64,000 nucleotides of DNA, from contig NZ_JBQCFT010000249.1 in the NCBI RefSeq assembly GCF_051958795.1, forward strand, positions 5,800-69,799, written 5' to 3'. This stretch comes from Luteibacter sp. (GTDB lineage: Bacteria; Pseudomonadota; Gammaproteobacteria; Xanthomonadales; Rhodanobacteraceae). The notes beneath the pieces are model-generated. The model did no database searches. It saw nothing but the letters and a program-made list of their open reading frames with translations, and was not told where the DNA came from. How positions within the stretch are numbered: the stretch's first letter is position 1; the number at the start of each line of letters is the position of its first letter. This document shows positions 1,922-60,200 of this stretch, piece after piece. Both the position numbers and the translations under genes were made by a program.

Positions 1922-2230
1922 ATGACCGACACCGCCGCCTGCTACACACATGCCTTCCGCTTCGCGGCGGGCCACCCCAGCTTCGCCGGGCATTTCCCCG
2001 GGCGGCCCATCGTGGCCGGCGTGCTGATCCTCGAGCATGCCGCGCGGGCGCTCAGGGCATGGCGCGATGCGTCGGTGCGCCAGGTCGTCGATGCGAAGTT
2101 CATCGCGCCGCTCCTGCCCGACGAAGAGGCCGTGCTGGAGCTGAGCGAAGCCGGTGAGCGCCGTTACCGCGTGGTGGTGCGTCGCGGGGACGCGACCCTC
2201 CTGCGCGGCACGCTGGAGGGCAGCGCATGA
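1922..2230 (+). CDS. FabA/FabZ-like hot-dog dehydratase (ApeI-like)
   Basis: HPSFAGHFPGRPIVAGV motif, followed by KFIAPLLP. Confidence 0.82.
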   Translation: MTDTAACYTHAFRFAAGHPSFAGHFPGRPIVAGVLILEHAARALRAWRDASVRQVVDAKFIAPLLPDEEAVLELSEAGERRYRVVVRRGDATLLRGTLEGSA

Positions 2231-3171
2231 GCCACTGGCAGCAGCGCGAAGGTGGTGGGTTCTTCGCCATCTGGCTTATCCGCACGATCGGGCTTCGCCT
2301 GGGCCGCCGCGTCGCGCGCCTGCTGTTATGGCCGATCGCGCTCTACTTTTTCCTGCGCCGCCCCGCGGAGCGGCTGGCCTCGCGCCTGTACCTCGCGCGC
2401 GTGCTGAACCGCCCCGTGACCCATGCGGATGTGTTCCACCACATCCACATGTTCTCGGCGACGCTGCTTGATCGCATGTTCTTCCTGGCGCGCGGCGAGC
2501 GCGACTTCATCGTCGAGGCCGAAGGCGTCGCCGAGCTGGATGCCTGCCTCGATGAAGGCAAGGGCGTTCTCCTCCTGGGGTCGCACCAGGGTAGCTTCGA
2601 GGCATTGCGCGCGCTCGGCCAGCGCCGCCCGGACGTACCGCTGCGCGTCGTCCTCGACAAGCAGAAGACCCCTGCGCTGACGGCCTTGCTGGAAGCGCTC
2701 GCCCCGGACGTGGGTGCCGCCGTGATCGACGCCTCGCTCGGCGGCACGTCGGTCGCCCTCGCCATGGCCGAGGGCGCCGCGAAAGGCGGCATGGTGGCCC
2801 TGCTCGCCGACCGTGGCAATCCGCACGAAGCCTCGCGCGTCGTGCCGTTCCTCGGTACCCCCGCATCGTTCCCGGTCGGCCCCTGGTTGCTAGCGTCGGC
2901 GCTGAAGATTCCCGTGGTGCTGTGCTTCGGCATCTATCTCGGCGGTAATCGCTACCGGCTGGTGTTCGAAACCTTCTCCGAAGGTATCGACATCCCGCGT
3001 GCGTCCCGCGCCGAAGCACTCGAGGCGATCATGGCCCGCTTCGCCTCGCGGCTCGAGCACTATTGCCGCCTGTACCCGTTCAACTGGTTCAACTTCTACG
3101 ATTTCTGGCAGGAGGCCGACGGTGCAACCGCAGCCGTTGTTCCCCAGCCGGTACAGCACGCCGATGCCTGA
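2227..3171 (+). CDS. LpxL/LPLAT-family acyltransferase of aryl-polyene/xanthomonadin clusters
   Basis: SHQGSFE (HxxxxE), LLADRG, FLG..A.FP.GP and WFNFYDFW motifs; ATGA overlap with the upstream gene. Confidence 0.85.
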   Translation: MSHWQQREGGGFFAIWLIRTIGLRLGRRVARLLLWPIALYFFLRRPAERLASRLYLARVLNRPVTHADVFHHIHMFSATLLDRMFFLARGERDFIVEAEGVAELDACLDEGKGVLLLGSHQGSFEALRALGQRRPDVPLRVVLDKQKTPALTALLEALAPDVGAAVIDASLGGTSVALAMAEGAAKGGMVALLADRGNPHEASRVVPFLGTPASFPVGPWLLASALKIPVVLCFGIYLGGNRYRLVFETFSEGIDIPRASRAEALEAIMARFASRLEHYCRLYPFNWFNFYDFWQEADGATAAVVPQPVQHADA

Positions 3172-3619
3172 CGGACAGCCACAACCGACGCTCACCAGGG
3201 CGGACTTCGCCTACCTCGTGCCGCACGCGGGCGACATGTGCCTGCTCGATGGCGTGGTGGCGTTCGACGCCGACACGATCCACGCGGTGAGCACGGACCA
3301 TGTCGCACCAACGCACCCGTTGCGCGGTGAAGACGGACTCCACGCGGTGCATCTCGCCGAATACGGTGCGCAGGCCACGGCGGTACACGGCGCACTGCGG
3401 GCCAAAGCGGCGGGCGCGACGCAGCCCCGTCCGGGCATGCTGGTGAGCCTGCGCGGCGTGAAGCTGGCGGTGGAGCGGATCGACGACCTGCCGGGTCGCC
3501 TCGATGTGTTCGCCGAATGCCTGCTTGCCGACGAGTCCGGCGCGCAATACACCTTCCGCATCGAGCACGAAGGCCGCGAGATCGCCAGCGGCCGGGCGGC
3601 GGTGATCCACCCGGCCTGA
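3164..3619 (+). CDS. Hot-dog-fold dehydratase partner (ApeP-like)
   Basis: LVPHAGDMCLLDGV, HPLR, EYGAQA.AVHG and GMLVSLR motifs. Confidence 0.8.
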   Translation: MPDGQPQPTLTRADFAYLVPHAGDMCLLDGVVAFDADTIHAVSTDHVAPTHPLRGEDGLHAVHLAEYGAQATAVHGALRAKAAGATQPRPGMLVSLRGVKLAVERIDDLPGRLDVFAECLLADESGAQYTFRIEHEGREIASGRAAVIHPA

Positions 3620-48025: not shown

Positions 48026-49873
48026 TCACTTCTTCTTCGACTTGCCGGCGAGGATGTTCTCCACCGCCTGCTGGGTCATCGGGTGGTAGCCAGCCTTTGC
48101 TTTCGCATAGGTGGCCTTCGCGAAAGCCAGGCCTTCCGGCGTGCGCGCGAACGCGCGATACACCGGCGTGGTGAGGTACAGGCGGCCGATGCGGGTCATG
48201 TGTTCCGCCGCGGCGGTCCACACGTCCTTATCGCCTGCGGCAATGGCGTGGACGTACCAGCGCATGCCGATCTCCGCGTTGGGCGTGCCGGTGAGGTGCC
48301 ACGCCGCGTCGAGCGCCTTCATCTTGTCGAGCGGAGCCACGTCCGGCATGCGATCCAGGAAGTACATCCATTCCTGGGTGTTCCAGGTCTTCGCATCCAG
48401 CTTCGCCGCATCGAGCTTGCCGGCGAGGAAATCCGTGCGTTCCTTGTCGATGCTGTCGAAGCGCGCCGACGTGGGCAGCGGCGCATCCTTCGGGATACCC
48501 GGCTGCCAGATCCACGCGCGCGCCTCGGCCTCGCTCATCTTGCCCGGGTACTTATCGAGCAGGTTGGCTTTCATGTAGGCGAACATCGTGTCGGTATCGA
48601 TGCTCTGGAACGCGAAGTGGGCGAAGTAGCCCTTGAGGTACGCGTCAAAGTTCTCGCGGCCGAAACGCTGCTCCAGCGTGCGCAGGAACCACGAGCCTTT
48701 GTCGTAGGCGACCGACGAAAGCGAATCGTCCGCGCCGACGCCACGCGGATCCGGCGTGAGCTTCTGCGTGTTCGGTTCCATCGAGCCGATGGTCTTCTCG
48801 AGTTCACGTGCGGAAAGCAGCGCTTCCTCGTCCGCCTGCGACTTGCCGTACACGGCCTCGGTGATGCGGCCCTGCACGTAGGTGGTGAAACCTTCGTTGA
48901 GCCAGATGTCGCGCCATGCGGCGCTGGTCACCAGGTTGCCCGACCACGAATGGGCCAGCTCATGCGAGACCAGCGAGACCAGGCTCTTGTCGCCAACGAG
49001 CACGGTTGGCGTGGCGAAGGTCATGTTGGGGTTTTCCATGCCGCCGAACGGGAACGACGGCGGAAGCACCAGGATGTCGTAACGACCCCAGGCATACGGG
49101 CCATACAGCTTCTCGGTGGTTTCGATCAGCTTCTCCGTGTCCTCGAACTCGTGCGCGGCCTTGGCGACCACGCTGGGCTCGGCGTACACGGCGCTGCGCG
49201 GGCCGGTCTCCTTCACCGCGATGTCGCCGGCGGCGATCGCCAGCAGGTACGAGGGGATGGGATGCGGCTGGTCGAACTTGAAATCGCCATCGAGCGGATG
49301 CTTCGCATCGTTGATGGCGCTCATCACCACTCGCACGTCCTTCGGCGCGCTCACGTGCGCGTCGTAGGTGAAGCGCACGGCGGGCGAATCCTGCAGCGGC
49401 ACCCACGAACGCGCGTGGATGGATTCCGACTGCGAGAACATGAAGGGCTGCTTCTTGTCCGCGGTCTGCTCAGGCGGGAGCCACTGCAGGCCCGAGGCCT
49501 CGGGCACGGTCGTGTAGGCGATGCGCACCTGTGCCGGATGCGCCGGCGCCTGGATCGTCAACTTCGCGCCCAGTTCCTTGTCGCGCGGTGCCAGCGCGAA
49601 CTTGAGCGGCGTCGCCTTGCCGCTGGCATCCACGGCATTGACGCTGGCGATCTTCAGGTCGCGCGTGTCGAGGACCAGGTCGCCCTTGCCGGCCTTCCAG
49701 TCGAGCTTCAGCGTCGCATCGCCGGCCAGTTCGCGTTTGGCGAAATCCACCTTGAGGTCGAGATCGAGGTGGGTGACCTTGACCACGTCCGGCTGGGCGT
49801 AGGAATGGGGATCGGCGGCGAAGGCCACTACCGGGAAGGCCACCGTGAGGGCCGCGAAGGGAAGCAGGCGCAT
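48026..49873 (-). CDS. M1-family aminopeptidase (leukotriene A4 hydrolase-like), exported
   Basis: Signal peptide, GGMEN, HELAHSW...WLNEG (HEXXH-X18-E) motifs. Confidence 0.95.
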   Translation of the reverse strand: MRLLPFAALTVAFPVVAFAADPHSYAQPDVVKVTHLDLDLKVDFAKRELAGDATLKLDWKAGKGDLVLDTRDLKIASVNAVDASGKATPLKFALAPRDKELGAKLTIQAPAHPAQVRIAYTTVPEASGLQWLPPEQTADKKQPFMFSQSESIHARSWVPLQDSPAVRFTYDAHVSAPKDVRVVMSAINDAKHPLDGDFKFDQPHPIPSYLLAIAAGDIAVKETGPRSAVYAEPSVVAKAAHEFEDTEKLIETTEKLYGPYAWGRYDILVLPPSFPFGGMENPNMTFATPTVLVGDKSLVSLVSHELAHSWSGNLVTSAAWRDIWLNEGFTTYVQGRITEAVYGKSQADEEALLSARELEKTIGSMEPNTQKLTPDPRGVGADDSLSSVAYDKGSWFLRTLEQRFGRENFDAYLKGYFAHFAFQSIDTDTMFAYMKANLLDKYPGKMSEAEARAWIWQPGIPKDAPLPTSARFDSIDKERTDFLAGKLDAAKLDAKTWNTQEWMYFLDRMPDVAPLDKMKALDAAWHLTGTPNAEIGMRWYVHAIAAGDKDVWTAAAEHMTRIGRLYLTTPVYRAFARTPEGLAFAKATYAKAKAGYHPMTQQAVENILAGKSKKK

Positions 49874-52800
49874 GGAACGTTTCCGTGGGAGGGAAGCCCC
49901 CAGTATGCCACTGGCACGCGGGGGGCTGGGACGAACGCCCGCGGAGGGCTAGGGGAGGCTGAAGGCACTGGACGCCCGGGTGAACGCCTCGGGCAGGTCA
50001 GGTCGCGGCGGCGGGTTCGCAAGGTGTAGGCGTACTCGCCGGAGGCCAGCAGGCGTCGCTCCATGCGATGTTCCCCACGCCAGTAAGCCTGGCGCATGTA
50101 GTTGCGATCGACCTCGATCCAGTGCCCGGTGGGGTCGCCGCGGCCGCGCTCGAGCGCGGTGATGCCCAGCGCCTCGTCCAGCCGGGCACGGGGTGTGCCG
50201 GGGGGCAGGGTGGTCACCCTGAATTCGCCGGGGTCGTAGAAGTGGCGCGAATGGCCCTGGATGAGCCATTCGATGCCGCCGCTCACACCGAACGCGCGGC
50301 CGGGCGCCTCCGGCGTGTAGATCCAGAAGCTCTCCGGCCAGTCGTGCGGCGCGACGATAGTGGTCGTGCCCACACCGCCGACGGCCTCATCCGCCGCAGC
50401 GACGGCCAGCCTTGCGGCAGCGACCGCCTCGTCCCAAAGCGAAGCCTGGCGTGGCGTCAGGTCGCCCGCTGGCGGCGGCGTCGAGGGATCCGAACTCGAC
50501 CCGATCGACGGATCCTGCCCGTCCTCGCCGCGCCAGCGCCGCTGGCCCGGTGAGCCCACGCGCCGCCCGCCATCGGCCCACCCACGGCGGGCCAGGAGCA
50601 GGCTGCGCTCGCGCGCGTCCGGCACCCGTGTTTCAAGCTCATGCAGGAATTGCCGGCGCTGGCCGGCATCCAGGGTGGCGAGGTCCGAAGCGATGCCGTC
50701 ATCGAACACCATGGCGCTGCGCGAAGGGACATCGACACGCAGGTGCATCGACTCGTTGCTCCCCAACCGGTACCGGAAGGTCGCCGACGGGTTGTCACGG
50801 ATGATCGCCTCGACCTCATCACGGATGGGCTCGAGCGCTGGCGGCAGCGACGGCCGCGGGGCAGCCACGGGCTCGGCAGCGGCCGGCACGGCCGGTTCCG
50901 CTGGCGCGGCCGCATGGTCGGCTTCGCGGCCGCCAAGGTTTAGCGCGCGGCGCAGGCGCTCACGCAGGCCCCGCCCGGCGCCACCCGGCAGGCCCACTCC
51001 GCGCGCATACGTCCATTCGCCTCCGATGCGCTGCACGGCCGGACCGGTAAAGGTGGCATCGAGCGAACCCTGCGGCCGTTCGAGACGCCACACATGGTTG
51101 TAGTCGTCGAAACGTACGGGATACAGGCGCCCGTCCTGGCTCACGTGGCGCCGCCCCTGGACGATGTGGAAGCCCTCGCTATCGGGGAGTTCGTTGGCAG
51201 CCACGCTCCGTGCCGCGTACCGGGATTCGAAGCGAGGGCCGCGGAGGTCCAGCCGCGCTTGCGCGGGTTGCGGTGCCGCGCCGCGCGCATGGCGGAGCAA
51301 TGGCGCGCGCCCGCTGCCCGCCGCCCAGAGCGGCCCGGCGAGATCGAGCCCGGTCACCCACGCATCGGTAAACGCAAGGTAGGCATCGGTCGCATCGCCG
51401 GATTTGACGCCATCGTAGAAGCGATCCAGCGCACTGCGCAGGCGTGCGGGTGCGGACAACGTCGACAGTGCAAGATCCGTCGCGAGCCCGGTGACCGGAT
51501 GCGTCCCGATCGGGCTGAAGGTCCAGTGCTCCTTCGCCCCGGATTCGACGTGGTGCGTATCGTGGATACGTTGATCCACCATCGCATCGTAGCCGGCATC
51601 GATGAAATCGCCGCTCACCTCGCGCTCGTCGAACGGTTCTTCCGTAAGGGTGTACGCCGCGTCGGCCGGGCTTCCAAGAACCCAGTGGGCCAGGCGATCG
51701 CCCTTGAAACGCCGCGTAACGCCGTTGGGATCCTGCGTGGCAAATGCCGCGGGGAGCCGGTCGAGCAGGTACTCGCGAAATGCAGGCGCGTACAGGAATG
51801 CGCGGGCCATCGCTTGCCGGTCAGCGAATTCGCGGAAGGCCGCGCCATCCGGCGCATCCGGCGTATACACGACGACGCGGGGCACGCTGCGCGCATCACG
51901 CGCGCCGATGACGACGACATCGCGCAGGGGGATGTCCTTGTAGGTGAGCTGGCGAGCGACGACCTCGTGGCCATCGATCAGCTTGCGGCCCGCCGGGGCA
52001 CGGTGGTCGAGCATCGCCTCGACCCAGCGGAAGCCGCGTTCGGCGTGGTCCTCCAGGAAAGAACGCGGTTCGTCGGCCAGGTAATACGACAGCCTCGCCT
52101 GCGCGGCATCGGCACGCATGCGCGCCGCCGTCAGCTCGATAGCGGTGAGTTTTGCGAGCCGCCCGGCGGGCCCCGTGCGCAGCTGCGATTCGAGGTGCTC
52201 GCGGTAGCGCGGTGCCACCCGCGCGTCGCGAACCACTGCGACGAGATCGGCCTGGGCAAGATGCGCGGCCATGGCGCTGCCATCGTGGCGCACCGTGCTC
52301 AACTGCACGGCATCCATGATGGTGAGGCCCCGCCATGCGAGTGCATGCAGCGTCTGCCGGATCGTGTTGGGGCCGACAAGCAACTGCTTCAGGTGTTCGT
52401 ACGAGCCTTTGGCGGGATCGTGGGTGACGTCGACCGACAGCATGGCCGATGCATCGCCGATCCCGAGCGCCGCCAGCCGCCCATCGAGCTCGTTCGATGT
52501 GAAGTCAACCATGCCCATCGGCGGCTCGACACCCCACGCGGTTCGCAGCACGGCCGTGTCGGCGGCGAGGCGTGCATACGACACCGTGGCCGCTCGCCAG
52601 TCGCGGGCGACCGGGGGCGGTACTCGCGCCAGTCGTTCGTCGGTGGCCTGGGCGAGCAGGCGCGCCTCGCGGGCACGCAGCAGCGCAGGCACATCCAGGA
52701 CACTCGCCAGGCGCGCATGGCCGAGCAGCCTGTCGTTGAACGTTGCCTGGGCACCGGGGAGGTCGCGGTCGAGCTGGTAGTCGTCCCAGACCTGGCGGAT

Positions 52801-53460
52801 CCGTGCGAGGTGGGTATCGAAAAGGTGCGTTGTCCACGCCCCTGCGGCATCGGCGCTGGCCGCGCGCAAGGATACTTCCGCACCATCGAAAGCGTCGGCG
52901 CAGGCGTCGACGTGCATCCCTGCGACCGAACCGGACTGGATACACCCGGACACGTAATGACGGACGGCATCCGTAGTCTCGTCGACAGAGGCCAGCGCTT
53001 CCCAGCCCTGGCCCGGCAAGAAGAGCAAGTGAAGGCCCGGCGTGTCGTCGGCCGTCGCGGCCACGGCGCCCGCGACCACATGTGGCCCTGCCCACACTTC
53101 CTGCAGGGACAAGCCCACGCCGACGTTGCCCGCCAGCCTATCGGCGACGCGCCCCGCGAGACGCGTGGCGTTCGGCGAGAGCGTGCCGTCCTCGCTGCGC
53201 AGAGCGGCTTCGCCGCGAAGGATCTCAGCAACCACCGGTGCCAACTGCGCCTGCGCCATGGAACGCCACGCCGCATGGTCGGAAAGAAAGGTATCGAACG
53301 TCGCGGGCGCAGGATCGGGAAGCCTGGGCGCGCTTTCGTCCAGGCGCGCGAGCGCGGCGTGCGCGGCGCTGAGCCTTAGCAATTCGGCCGAGGCCGCGGC
53401 GGCTTCCCGGGTCATGCCGTGCACGGCCGCGGGAGCGGGTGAAGGAGGGAGCATATCCAT
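49828..53460 (-). CDS. Large DUF6543/dermonecrotic-toxin-like effector paralogue 1; probable frameshift near the 3' end (native stop likely at 49949)
   Basis: YTPDAPDG.(F)REF, YLLDRLP and WRL.R...GPA...GLPGG shared with the two paralogues; family assignment from memory of such motifs. Confidence 0.7.
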   Translation of the reverse strand: MDMLPPSPAPAAVHGMTREAAAASAELLRLSAAHAALARLDESAPRLPDPAPATFDTFLSDHAAWRSMAQAQLAPVVAEILRGEAALRSEDGTLSPNATRLAGRVADRLAGNVGVGLSLQEVWAGPHVVAGAVAATADDTPGLHLLFLPGQGWEALASVDETTDAVRHYVSGCIQSGSVAGMHVDACADAFDGAEVSLRAASADAAGAWTTHLFDTHLARIRQVWDDYQLDRDLPGAQATFNDRLLGHARLASVLDVPALLRAREARLLAQATDERLARVPPPVARDWRAATVSYARLAADTAVLRTAWGVEPPMGMVDFTSNELDGRLAALGIGDASAMLSVDVTHDPAKGSYEHLKQLLVGPNTIRQTLHALAWRGLTIMDAVQLSTVRHDGSAMAAHLAQADLVAVVRDARVAPRYREHLESQLRTGPAGRLAKLTAIELTAARMRADAAQARLSYYLADEPRSFLEDHAERGFRWVEAMLDHRAPAGRKLIDGHEVVARQLTYKDIPLRDVVVIGARDARSVPRVVVYTPDAPDGAAFREFADRQAMARAFLYAPAFREYLLDRLPAAFATQDPNGVTRRFKGDRLAHWVLGSPADAAYTLTEEPFDEREVSGDFIDAGYDAMVDQRIHDTHHVESGAKEHWTFSPIGTHPVTGLATDLALSTLSAPARLRSALDRFYDGVKSGDATDAYLAFTDAWVTGLDLAGPLWAAGSGRAPLLRHARGAAPQPAQARLDLRGPRFESRYAARSVAANELPDSEGFHIVQGRRHVSQDGRLYPVRFDDYNHVWRLERPQGSLDATFTGPAVQRIGGEWTYARGVGLPGGAGRGLRERLRRALNLGGREADHAAAPAEPAVPAAAEPVAAPRPSLPPALEPIRDEVEAIIRDNPSATFRYRLGSNESMHLRVDVPSRSAMVFDDGIASDLATLDAGQRRQFLHELETRVPDARERSLLLARRGWADGGRRVGSPGQRRWRGEDGQDPSIGSSSDPSTPPPAGDLTPRQASLWDEAVAAARLAVAAADEAVGGVGTTTIVAPHDWPESFWIYTPEAPGRAFGVSGGIEWLIQGHSRHFYDPGEFRVTTLPPGTPRARLDEALGITALERGRGDPTGHWIEVDRNYMRQAYWRGEHRMERRLLASGEYAYTLRTRRRDLTCPRRSPGRPVPSASPSPPRAFVPAPRVPVAYWGLPSHGNVPCACFPSRPSRWPSR

Positions 53461-53516
53461 ATGCGAACCTTGTGATGGGAGTTGGAAGATGTAGTGCGAT
53501 GGGGGCTTGTGGCCCG

Positions 53517-57286: not shown

Positions 57287-60200
57287 TCAGGGTTCGCGCC
57301 CGAGGTGGGTGATCTGCATATCGCTGGCGTCGAGGCGGATGAAGGCCTCGCTGGTCGGGCGCAGGAAGTACTTGGTGCCGTTGGCGCTATCGATGCCGAT
57401 GTATTCCACGCTGGCGCCCGTGGGGAGCGCGGCCTCCCGCTGGAGGAAGTCGCGGGGACGCAACCGGATGGCGAAGGTGCTAGACCGCGTCAACGCTCGG
57501 TTCCCGACCGCCCGCTGGATATCGGCGATCGGAGCGGTCGGCGGCACGGTGGTGACACGGACACCATAGAGACCACCGCCGAGCCACTCGCCATGCAGGT
57601 GGGCCCAGTGGGGGTTGTAACCACGGTTCGTGCGCTGGCGGTGCAGGCGGCTGTCGCGGAAGGGGAGCTGGCCGTAGTACCACATCTCCTCCGGGACGCG
57701 CGCCTGCTCGATCCGGCGGAACGGTTCGGGTACGGCGGGCGCCACGGGACGTGCGGCGGGGCGGGCCGGGGGGAGTGGGCTGAGATCCAGTGGGCGGTTC
57801 TGCGCAAGGATGATGCGCTCCCGGGTGGAGATGGCCTGTGCGGCCGCGGCCCGTTCAGCCGCCGCGGACCAGCGCGCGCGCTGGGCGGCGGTAATGACGG
57901 CCGGCGTCGGCAGGCTGCGTGCCTCCGCCTCCATCCCGCCGGCAACGAGTTCCCGTTCGGTGGGGTTCGGAAAGGCGTGCTCGAGTTCTTCCATATAGCG
58001 GTTGAACGGACGCCCGTTGGCGTGATCGGGCGGGCCGGGCACACGGGCAGCCCCGCGTCCGCTCCCGCCCCGCAGGCCCACCTCGTTGAACGCCCAGGTG
58101 CCCGCTTCGGTCCGGCGAATGGCCGGGCCCCACGCATGCGGGGCGCCCTGGCGCTCGAGCCGCCAGGTGGCGAAGTCGCTGTCGTAGCGAACGCCATACA
58201 TTTTCCCGTTCTGCTCGATGTAGCGCCGGGCACCCAGCATCACGATGCCGTCGGTGCCCGCGGATGATCCCGTCGGCACGAGGCTGGCTTCAAACCGGGG
58301 TTCGAACGCCACGGCCGCCTGAGTCACGGGCCTGCCGCCCACCAGCTTGCCGCCCTGGCGGAAACGCGCCGCAACCAGCCCCCGTGCCGAAGGCGCGACG
58401 GTCTGCGGGGCGATGATCCCCAGCGATGCCACGTAGAAGTCGGCGAAGTCGACGAACGCACGGGCATGGTCGCCTTCCTTCAGGCTGTCGTACAGCCGCC
58501 AGGAGGCCTGCGCGGCATGCGCGGGGGCGTAGACGATGCCCTTCACCGCATTGGCTACCAGGTTGTCGAAGAGCAGGCGCCGCGGCCACTCGACCAGCCA
58601 CTCCCAATTCGCAGCCTCGGCGCTGCGGCTGAAGAGGGCGACGTTGCGCAGCGCCTGCTGCACGCCGGTGTCGTAGACCGCTTCAAGGACGTTGCCCTCG
58701 ACGACGCGTTGCGCGAAAGGCTCCGCCGTCTTCGTATAGGCGGCGTCGACGGGCGCCCCTAGCACCCAGTGCGCGAGGTGGTCGCCCGCGAATGCGCGGT
58801 TGCCGGCATCCGCCTGGGGCCTGGCATATTCGTTCGGCAGGCGATCGAGCAGGTATTCGCGGAACGACGGGTGATGGAAGAAGCGCCGTGCGGCCTCGGC
58901 ACGATCGTCGAACTCGCGGAACACCACGCCATCCGGTGCGTCGGGCGTGTAGAACACCACGGTCGGGACGGCCTCGGTCTGGCGTACGCCGATCTCCAGC
59001 ACGTCCTTGAGCGGCGTGCCCTGGTAGGTCACCTGCCTCGCGACGATTTCGTGCTGGTCCACGCGCGCGCGTCCTGCCGGCGAAGGGGCATCCAGCACGG
59101 CCTCGACCCAGCGGAACCCGCGCTCGGCGTGGTCGGGACGGAACGAGCGTGGCTCACCCGGGAGGTAGTACGACAGGCGTGCCTCCGCCGCCTGCATGCG
59201 CATGCGCGCGAGCAACAGCGTGGTGTTGGCCTCGCGGCGCTGCCCGGCGGTCTCGCCGTCGCGATAGGCGGCAACAAGGTGATCGCGGTAGCGCGTGGCG
59301 AGATCCAGGTCGCGGACAAGCGAGCGGATGGCCGTGTCCGTCAATGCCGCCAGCGGCTGGCCTGCGGCGTCAACCGCGCTGAGCTGGACCGGATCGAACG
59401 ATGCGATGTTCTGGTACACGAGATCCAGCAGGCCGATGCGTGCGGGTCGCGTACCATCGCACAAGGCCTCGAGCGACTGCACGCGCACGGCCGCGTCCCG
59501 CCAGTAGTCCGCCTTGATGAAGATGTCCGCAGGCGAGGTCGTGATCCCCAGGGTCGCCAGCCGCGCCGCGGCTTCCTGGGCCGCGAAGGCGGTGAGTGTT
59601 TCGATGCCCGCATTTACCGATTTATAGGTTTCCTGCACGGCGGCGTAGTGCGCGGCGGCATCTTGCCAGCCGCTCGCGACCTCGGCGGGGACCTGCGCCA
59701 GGCGTCCCTCGTTCACCAGCCTCACCAGGCGTGCATGCCGGTGTGCCAGCAGGGTTTCCACGTTCACCAGCGGCCGCGCCACTTCGGCGGTGACGGTATC
59801 GCGGAGCACGATGTCGCGGTGGGGATCGGTCGCGGTCACCAACCAGCCTACCCATGCCTCGGCCACCCGCTCGCGTTGCACCGCGAGCGCGGTACCGACG
59901 TACGCGGAGAACGCGCCGCCGGTGCATGTTGCGGAGGTCACCGAGGGTAGCGCCCCGGCGGCCAGGGGGCGGCGTGCCATGCCGGGCACGCCGCCATCGT
60001 CGGCCATGCGCTCCCGCAGGCGCTGGCCGAACGCGTCGTGCAGCGCATCGAGGCTGGCATAACGTTCCCAGCCGGCATCAGCGGTGAATAGCAGCGCGCT
60101 GCCCTCGCCACCCTGGCGGGCGACGACCAGGCTCCCGGCGAGCGGCCGGCCTGCAAACATGGGGCAACGCGCGTCGATGCCGGGTGCCGGGCCGTCTCCG

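Follow-up and report, generated by a model that had tools for sequence, protein, structure and literature searches.

Introduction

Toxin domains of the Tox-ART-HYD1 type, a kind of ADP-ribosyltransferase (ART), are recognised by the four-residue signature H,[RK],[FY],[DE] (PMC3482391). The characterised HYD1 enzyme is Tre23, the tip of an Rhs toxin of Photorhabdus laumondii, which is paired with an immunity partner, Tri23; it ADP-ribosylates 23S rRNA, and substitutions of its His8 and Tyr33 abolish toxicity (PMC8661411). In this work, we analysed the C-terminal domains (the tails) of three large proteins, P1, P2 and P3, which are encoded on a stretch of 64,000 nucleotides from Luteibacter sp. 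(assembly GCF_051958795.1, contig NZ_JBQCFT010000249.1, positions 5,800 to 69,799), referred to as the window below. An earlier reading of these letters (the sequence-only reading) had likened the tails to HYD1-type ADP-ribosyltransferases. Our comparison suggests that they are degenerate, HYD1-derived cargo domains, probably pseudo-enzymes, at the end of proteins built on a ToxA_N chassis.

Two kinds of described protein bear on this chassis. ToxA_N (PF20178) corresponds to the N-terminal part of Pasteurella multocida toxin (PMT), which we take to have a role in binding and translocation, the active part lying at the C-terminal end. PMT and Bordetella dermonecrotic toxin (DNT) are single long chains whose C-terminal active domain is a deamidase in the case of PMT and a transglutaminase/deamidase in that of DNT. 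By Pfam, they have their N-terminal module in common with the window proteins, while their C-terminal domains are unrelated to the window tails, and nothing in the window data points to an action on animals. The second kind is found in Pseudomonas, where ToxA_N and a HYD1 domain are joined in one protein that resembles the window proteins in its chassis, its length and the C-terminal position of the HYD1-type domain. These proteins carry the NCBI names 'HYD1 signature containing ADP-ribosyltransferase family protein' or 'dermonecrotic toxin domain-containing protein', and to our knowledge none of them has been characterised; a literature search on 'DUF6543' found no paper.

Relationship among the three tails

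The tail domains of P1, P2 and P3 are 113–137 amino acids (aa) in size. The sequence-only reading had quoted four short motifs from each of them and proposed that they follow one common order of strands. All twelve motifs are found on the minus strand at the places given for them (Table 1), and the P1 and P3 tails, both modelled confidently with AlphaFold2, share the order of their strands and helices, in agreement with that proposal. Profiles were built from same-genus orthologues, namely 16 P3-type, 17 P1-type and 10 P2-type tails, and in a joint alignment of 43 genus tails the four motif groups fall into the same columns. The P1 and P3 types have a segment, folded into a helix behind the second motif, that is absent from the P2 type.

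Raw pairwise similarity is weak, as BLASTP returned a 25-residue match between the P1 and P3 tails (E 5e-5) and nothing significant between the P2 tail and the other two. Profile–profile alignment with hhalign joined the three types over nearly their full length, at 92.9% (E 3.6e-7) for the P3 type against the P1 type, 96.6% (E 6.8e-10) for the P3 type against the P2 type, and 95.1% (E 3.3e-8) for the P1 type against the P2 type. These alignments indicate that the three C-terminal domains are mutually homologous. In an exhaustive search of 1.84 billion representatives, the P3-type profile matched 23 proteins, nearly all of which measure 1030–1120 aa and end with the tail; as judged from these matches, the P3-type tail has a narrow distribution and always the same architecture. 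No outside family that could suggest a function emerged from this search.

Profile-level link to Tox-ART-HYD1

The likeness to HYD1 had been proposed from a motif pattern and an alignment by eye. This pattern is present in real HYD1 sequences, as FYHYTG, RHYFTDLAP, a helix ending in FG, HYYEVNT and IFYVE, and the P1-type profile aligns with the HYD1 profile in exactly the register that had been suggested. Against an alignment of 53 HYD1 sequences, hhalign placed the P1 type at 66% (P 5.6e-5) over 81 columns. The score of this match is 33.2, or 25.4 when L041, the most HYD1-like sequence among the P1-type tails, is left out, and in either case it lies above the maximum of a column-shuffle null (150 trials; mean 10.6, standard deviation 2.6, maximum 22.1). 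The order of motifs shared between Tre23 or HYD1 and the window tails starts with an aromatic strand, (H)Y(T), and continues with G-x-h-h-T-x-L-x-P and a helix ending in G, an h-h-E-h-D strand and a Y/F-h-h strand. Tre23 and the window tails are also alike in forming the C-terminal end of a large delivery protein. They differ in their carriers, which is Rhs for Tre23 and ToxA_N for the window tails, and in the immunity partner, which has no counterpart next to the window genes. Moreover, HYD1 has a helix after the first strand, in place of which the P1 and P3 tail models have short strands.

Through L041 we reached a fourth tail type (type 4; six sequences, L065–L070), which is carried by ToxA_N-type proteins in sister genomes of the same genus. 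Type-4 tails are the closest relatives of the P1 type and, unlike the window tails, have the first-strand His in all six sequences, while Tyr and Glu are each present in four of the six. L067 and L068 carry the full H-Y-E set, and the only Pfam match of these two is the HYD1 family PF15633, below threshold (E 0.03–0.05). The type-4 profile aligns with HYD1 at 96.7% (E 3.8e-10). With the window types it aligns at 91% (E 1.1e-6) for the P3 type, 97% (E 1e-10) for the P2 type and 95.6% (E 1.2e-8) for the P1 type without L041, and these matches span 84–87 columns. The scores observed with type 4 range from 43 to 62, compared with shuffle maxima of 17–24, and a W-P lead-in and the order of the motifs are common to all four tail types. 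A merged profile of HYD1 and type 4 matched the P1 type at 96.4% and the P2 type at 76%; for the P3 type it gave only 5%, though the register was right. Taken together, the alignments make it likely that the tails of P1, P2 and P3 are members of a group of HYD1-derived domains that radiated within the genus.

Type 4 also resembles the window tails in its setting, as it occurs in the same gene cluster and on the same kind of carrier. In one sister genome (G055), the type-4 gene of L067 occupies the locus position of P1, directly upstream of the gene for the M1 aminopeptidase that follows P1 in the window. The pair takes up positions 1-1932 (type-4 paralogue) and 2008-3399 (M1 aminopeptidase) of L067, with no gene between them, immunity-like or otherwise. 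A search of the window's own genome found no type-4 match.

Several results weigh against a HYD1 origin. The P2-type and P3-type profiles gave no signal when aligned directly with HYD1, and the link of these two types to HYD1 is therefore transitive, running through the six bridging sequences of type 4. PF15633 was matched neither by the three tails at E-values up to 10 nor in the six frames of the window's genome, while true HYD1 members scored 25–54 bits in the same tools (gathering score 25 bits). More generally, Pfam and NCBIfam searches with the whole proteins and with the cut tails returned ToxA_N only and left the tails unmatched. The P1- and P3-type hidden Markov models matched nothing in four Pseudomonas genomes that hold true HYD1. 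On the structural side, the fold check that the sequence-only reading had called for gave no support to an ART fold, in that Foldseek searches of the PDB with the P1 and P3 models gave nothing below E 0.09, and ART was absent among the 50 matches listed, all with template modelling scores of 0.27 or less; as these searches were run without a true-HYD1 positive control, the weight of this negative is uncertain. A Foldseek search of BFVD with the tail models gave no match. Sequence searches of the PDB with the P3-type and P1-type profiles found nothing meaningful; the sole PDB sequence match of a HYD1 profile was the Tre23 Rhs chain 7pq5_L (E 0.0036), in which the toxin part is presumably not resolved.

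Could the tails then have a genus-restricted, non-ART fold, with the likeness to HYD1 being a coincidence of short motifs or a product of convergence and type 4 being a true HYD1 domain that was swapped onto the chassis? Cargo swapping is common in such toxins (PMC3482391), and this explanation accords with the absence of ART among the Foldseek matches of two confident models, with the negative Pfam searches, with the missing direct HYD1 match of the P2 and P3 types, and with the mere 23 proteins matched by the P3-type tail. We nonetheless consider it very unlikely, because type 4 matches all three window types at 91–97%, far above the shuffle nulls, because the direct score of the P1 type with HYD1 exceeds the shuffle maximum even without L041, and because the W-P lead-in and the motif order recur in all four types. 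The descent of the tails from HYD1 is thus partly supported, by sequence profiles and not by structure: of the likeness that had been proposed, the profile-level sequence link was recovered, and the fold and a direct Pfam match were not.

HYD1 on the ToxA_N chassis

P1, P2 and P3 are paralogous large proteins of the ToxA_N type, about 950–1200 aa in length. In a paralogue alignment they are pairwise approximately 33–34% identical across the first ~830 residues and divergent beyond. PF20178 was matched by P3 with 105 bits (E 7e-30) and, in a six-frame search of the genome, by P1 with 82.8 bits (window 51748-52428), both above the gathering score of 27 bits. P2 had no Pfam match of its own in the whole-protein search. 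The ToxA_N match in translated P1 was missed by hmmscan yet found in the six-frame search, for which a composition filter may be the reason.

True HYD1 domains (PF15633) were gathered from genomes of the Pseudomonas family, where some are carried on Rhs proteins and others end proteins of 1050–1130 aa. A representative of the latter, the 1128-aa protein L062 of Pseudomonas, has ToxA_N at residues 413–665 and HYD1 at residues 999–1098. The HYD1-type tail of L062 is shared by 36 protein clusters, most of which are also annotated with PF20178. Over their N-terminal ~560 columns, the families from Luteibacter and Pseudomonas align with each other at 99.9%, and this alignment, together with the architecture of L062, therefore indicates that a HYD1 domain known to Pfam is found on this very chassis, likewise at the C-terminal end. 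The two families differ in the stretch from about residue 650 to the tail, which shows no significant alignment. They also differ in the tails themselves: those of the Pseudomonas proteins are matched by the Pfam model and have for the most part retained H, R, Y and E, whereas the window tails do neither.

Seven of the Pseudomonas proteins (P0054, P0056, P0057, P0059, P0063, P0068 and P0070) have FYKY in place of FYHY and retain RHYFTDLAP and YEVNT. The PF15633 annotation is absent from the precomputed Pfam column for these seven. In this subset, Lys stands where the first-strand His would be, so that the His would have been lost in parallel in a second lineage.

Loss of signature residues under purifying selection

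As the sequence-only reading had noted, none of the three tails has the first His, which corresponds to His8 of Tre23; it is Ile in P1 and Tyr in P2 and P3. The loss extends to further positions of the signature. The [RK] position, which precedes the aromatic residue of the second motif by two, is Glu in P1 and Gly in P2 and P3, and is Gly in type 4 as well. The [FY] position in the second motif, which corresponds to Tyr33 of Tre23, is occupied by Arg in P1 and P3 and by Ala in P2. At the [DE] position in the third motif, Glu is kept in P1 (HWIEVD) and Arg is found in P2 and P3. Each window tail accordingly lacks three or four of the four residues. Across the genus, the first-strand His is found in none of 16 P3-type tails, 2 of 17 P1-type tails and 5 of 10 P2-type tails. 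The residues at the former catalytic positions vary inside each type, and the positions that are invariant within types hold P, Y, G, F, W or L, with no polar residue invariant in any type. Related to HYD1 by remote homology and lying outside it by Pfam score and by signature, the tails would best be described as a degenerate HYD1 variant, and we file them as non-members of the family.

The loss of these residues is not accompanied by decay. Relative to the orthologue in a sister genome (G310), the ratio of nonsynonymous to synonymous substitution rates (dN/dS) is 0.11–0.17 for the P1 tail and 0.22–0.28 for the P2 tail, compared with 0.12–0.15 for the upstream parts of the proteins, and each tail type is kept as part of an open frame of about 1000–1300 aa in 11–16 other genomes of the genus. 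Purifying selection acts on the tails. It could still be argued that they are functionless, decaying remnants of a dead toxin domain, as all or most of the signature residues are gone and the frame of P1 is shifted near its end. We give this hardly any credence in view of the dN/dS values (0.11–0.28) and of the open frames kept across the genus; in addition, two of the tails fold confidently in AlphaFold2, and the shift in P1 comes after the last conserved strand.

This frame shift bears on the end of P1, which had been placed at 49949. That end holds in the neighbouring frame only; the continuous frame of the window reaches 49828 and adds ~60 residues of low-complexity read-through, which overlap the start of the M1 peptidase gene at 49873. 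The short C-terminal tail of the G310 orthologue (L026) matches the window's neighbouring frame, and P1 therefore has a one-base frame difference near 49,995–50,000, beyond its last conserved strand. Sister genomes hold intact copies of P1. The draft consists of 438 contigs, and the shift may stem from an error of assembly or reflect a genuine mutation.

A further alternative is that the tails still use nicotinamide adenine dinucleotide (NAD), as ADP-ribosyltransferases or as NAD glycohydrolases, through non-canonical residues such as the Glu retained in P1 or the Arg residues that often occupy motifs two and three of the P3 type. Two points count against the pseudo-enzyme reading here, namely that the presumed loss of activity is read from residue identities and that some ARTs work with non-canonical triads. 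Continued use of NAD would also be in keeping with the HYD1 ancestry of the tails, with a purifying selection that equals in strength that on the remainder of the protein, with the acidic residue of P1, with the Pseudomonas FYKY subset, which swaps the His yet keeps the other motifs, and with the fact that the cargo slot of a toxin-like chassis normally holds an enzyme. We regard it as unlikely, since a catalytic role is hard to reconcile with three types in which no polar residue is invariant and the former catalytic positions vary, and since both His and Tyr, which are required in Tre23, are lost in the three window proteins. A repurposed or inactive warhead appears more likely than a working ADP-ribosyltransferase.

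Gene neighbourhood and delivery

The genes and domains are listed in Table 1. P3 and P2 are separated by a gene for a methyltransferase outside the toxin family. The other neighbours are plsB, upstream of P3, and, downstream of P1, the genes for the M1 aminopeptidase and for an alpha/beta hydrolase. The nearest named relative of P3 is a protein from a metagenome-assembled genome of Luteibacter.

Table 1. Positions of the genes, tail domains and motifs in the window. Signature residues are given in the order of the HYD1 signature; pLDDT, predicted local distance difference test; pTM, predicted template modelling score.
Feature	Positions	Strand	Description
P1	49828..53460	minus	Open frame, 1210 aa as read; ToxA_N-type; last ~60 residues are out-of-frame read-through
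P1 frame-shift stretch	49949..50004	minus	One-base shift near 49,995-50,000; neighbouring frame stops at 49949-49951
P1 C-terminal domain (P1-type)	50005..50358	minus	Alignment of 17 tails; signature I, E, R, E; AlphaFold2 pLDDT 83.8, pTM 0.77
P1 motifs	50314-50340; 50194-50223; 50107-50127; 50014-50031	minus	WPESFWIYT; FRVTTLPPGT; GHWIEVD; AYTLRT
P2	53517..56372	minus	Paralogue, 951 aa; from translation and paralogue alignment
P2 C-terminal domain (P2-type)	53520..53858	minus	Alignment of 10 tails; signature Y, G, A, R
P2 motifs	53826-53852; 53724-53750; 53676-53696; 53580-53597	minus	
ubiE/COQ5-family methyltransferase gene	56488..57267	minus	Between P3 and P2; PF01209, E 3e-90; outside the toxin family
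P3	57287..60517	minus	Paralogue, 1076 aa; Pfam ToxA_N at residues 303-561
P3 C-terminal domain (P3-type)	57290..57700	minus	Alignment of 16 tails; signature Y, G, R, R; AlphaFold2 pLDDT 87.3, pTM 0.82
P3 motifs	57671-57697; 57536-57565; 57458-57478; 57356-57373	minus	

The gene order varies among the genomes. In the window it is P3, ubiE, P2, P1, and the order P2 then P1 is also found in G310. In G154 and G288 the tails are ordered P3, P1, P2 and spaced at gene length, and in G139 and G108 a fourth, type-4 paralogue lies within the cluster.

With regard to delivery, no N-terminal signal peptide is apparent in P1, P2 or P3 by inspection. The type VI sheath family PF05943 was not matched in the window's genome, a 98%-complete draft, and only one FHIPEP (PF00771) gene was found there, which is presumably flagellar. 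The genome thus appears to have no obvious injection apparatus for toxin-like proteins. An immunity-like neighbour was found neither around the window genes nor at the type-4 locus of G055. The absence of an obvious signal peptide, of a type VI sheath, of a second FHIPEP gene and of an immunity neighbour fits self-delivery to non-bacterial targets better than an interbacterial polymorphic toxin, and the case for this route is circumstantial.

Three other roles were set aside. A classical polymorphic toxin with an immunity gene does not agree with the neighbours, which are plsB, ubiE, the M1 peptidase and the alpha/beta hydrolase with no small downstream gene. An immunity-like protein is at odds with the fusion of the tail to a toxin chassis. 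For a C-terminal secretion or sorting signal, a folded domain of ~130 aa with HYD1 ancestry fits cargo better.

Proposed fate of the tails and its implications

In the explanation that we favour, the ToxA_N chassis of P1, P2 and P3 carries a HYD1-related domain at its C-terminal 'cargo' position. The NAD-handling signature has been lost in these three lineages, with His and Tyr gone and the acidic residue remaining only in P1. As suggested by these residues, the tails would no longer perform canonical H-Y-[EDQ] transfer of ADP-ribose. They may act as pseudo-ART binding modules on the target of the ancestral enzyme, or may have taken another role; it is the purifying selection on the tails that leads us to infer a non-catalytic binding module or a new role. 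The data show the mutual homology of the tails, their profile link to HYD1, the loss of the signature residues and the purifying selection; that enzymatic activity has gone, that the tails act by binding, how they are delivered and what they act on are inferred. Overall, we think it rather likely that the tails descend from HYD1, lack canonical ADP-ribosylation, and serve as binding modules or have an altered activity.

A bolder version would make the tails a new functional class on a self-delivering, PMT-like chassis, in a genome that yielded no type VI sheath gene and no second type III export gate. They would be either pseudo-ARTs that block a target by binding alone or enzymes whose chemistry is new. 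The genome would then maintain three specialised forms side by side, perhaps with eukaryotic partners of Luteibacter (fungi, plants) as targets. The known targets of HYD1 enzymes are RNAs, such as 23S rRNA for Tre23 (PMC8661411). We hold this version to be distinctly unlikely; if it were true, degenerate HYD1-like tails would not be dead enzymes.

The analysis uses sequence profiles to assign an origin to a domain that goes unrecognised by any database model and that is confined to a few dozen protein clusters among 1.84 billion representatives. Without a known target, the consequences in practice are modest. The pairing of a ToxA_N chassis with HYD1-type cargo in two gammaproteobacterial lineages offers a handle on the uncharacterised ToxA_N/DUF6543 proteins. 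Within one genus, apparently intact H-Y-E tails stand beside three lineages that have lost the triad and are under selection, and this natural series is suited to asking what a toxin ART domain becomes after the enzyme is lost.

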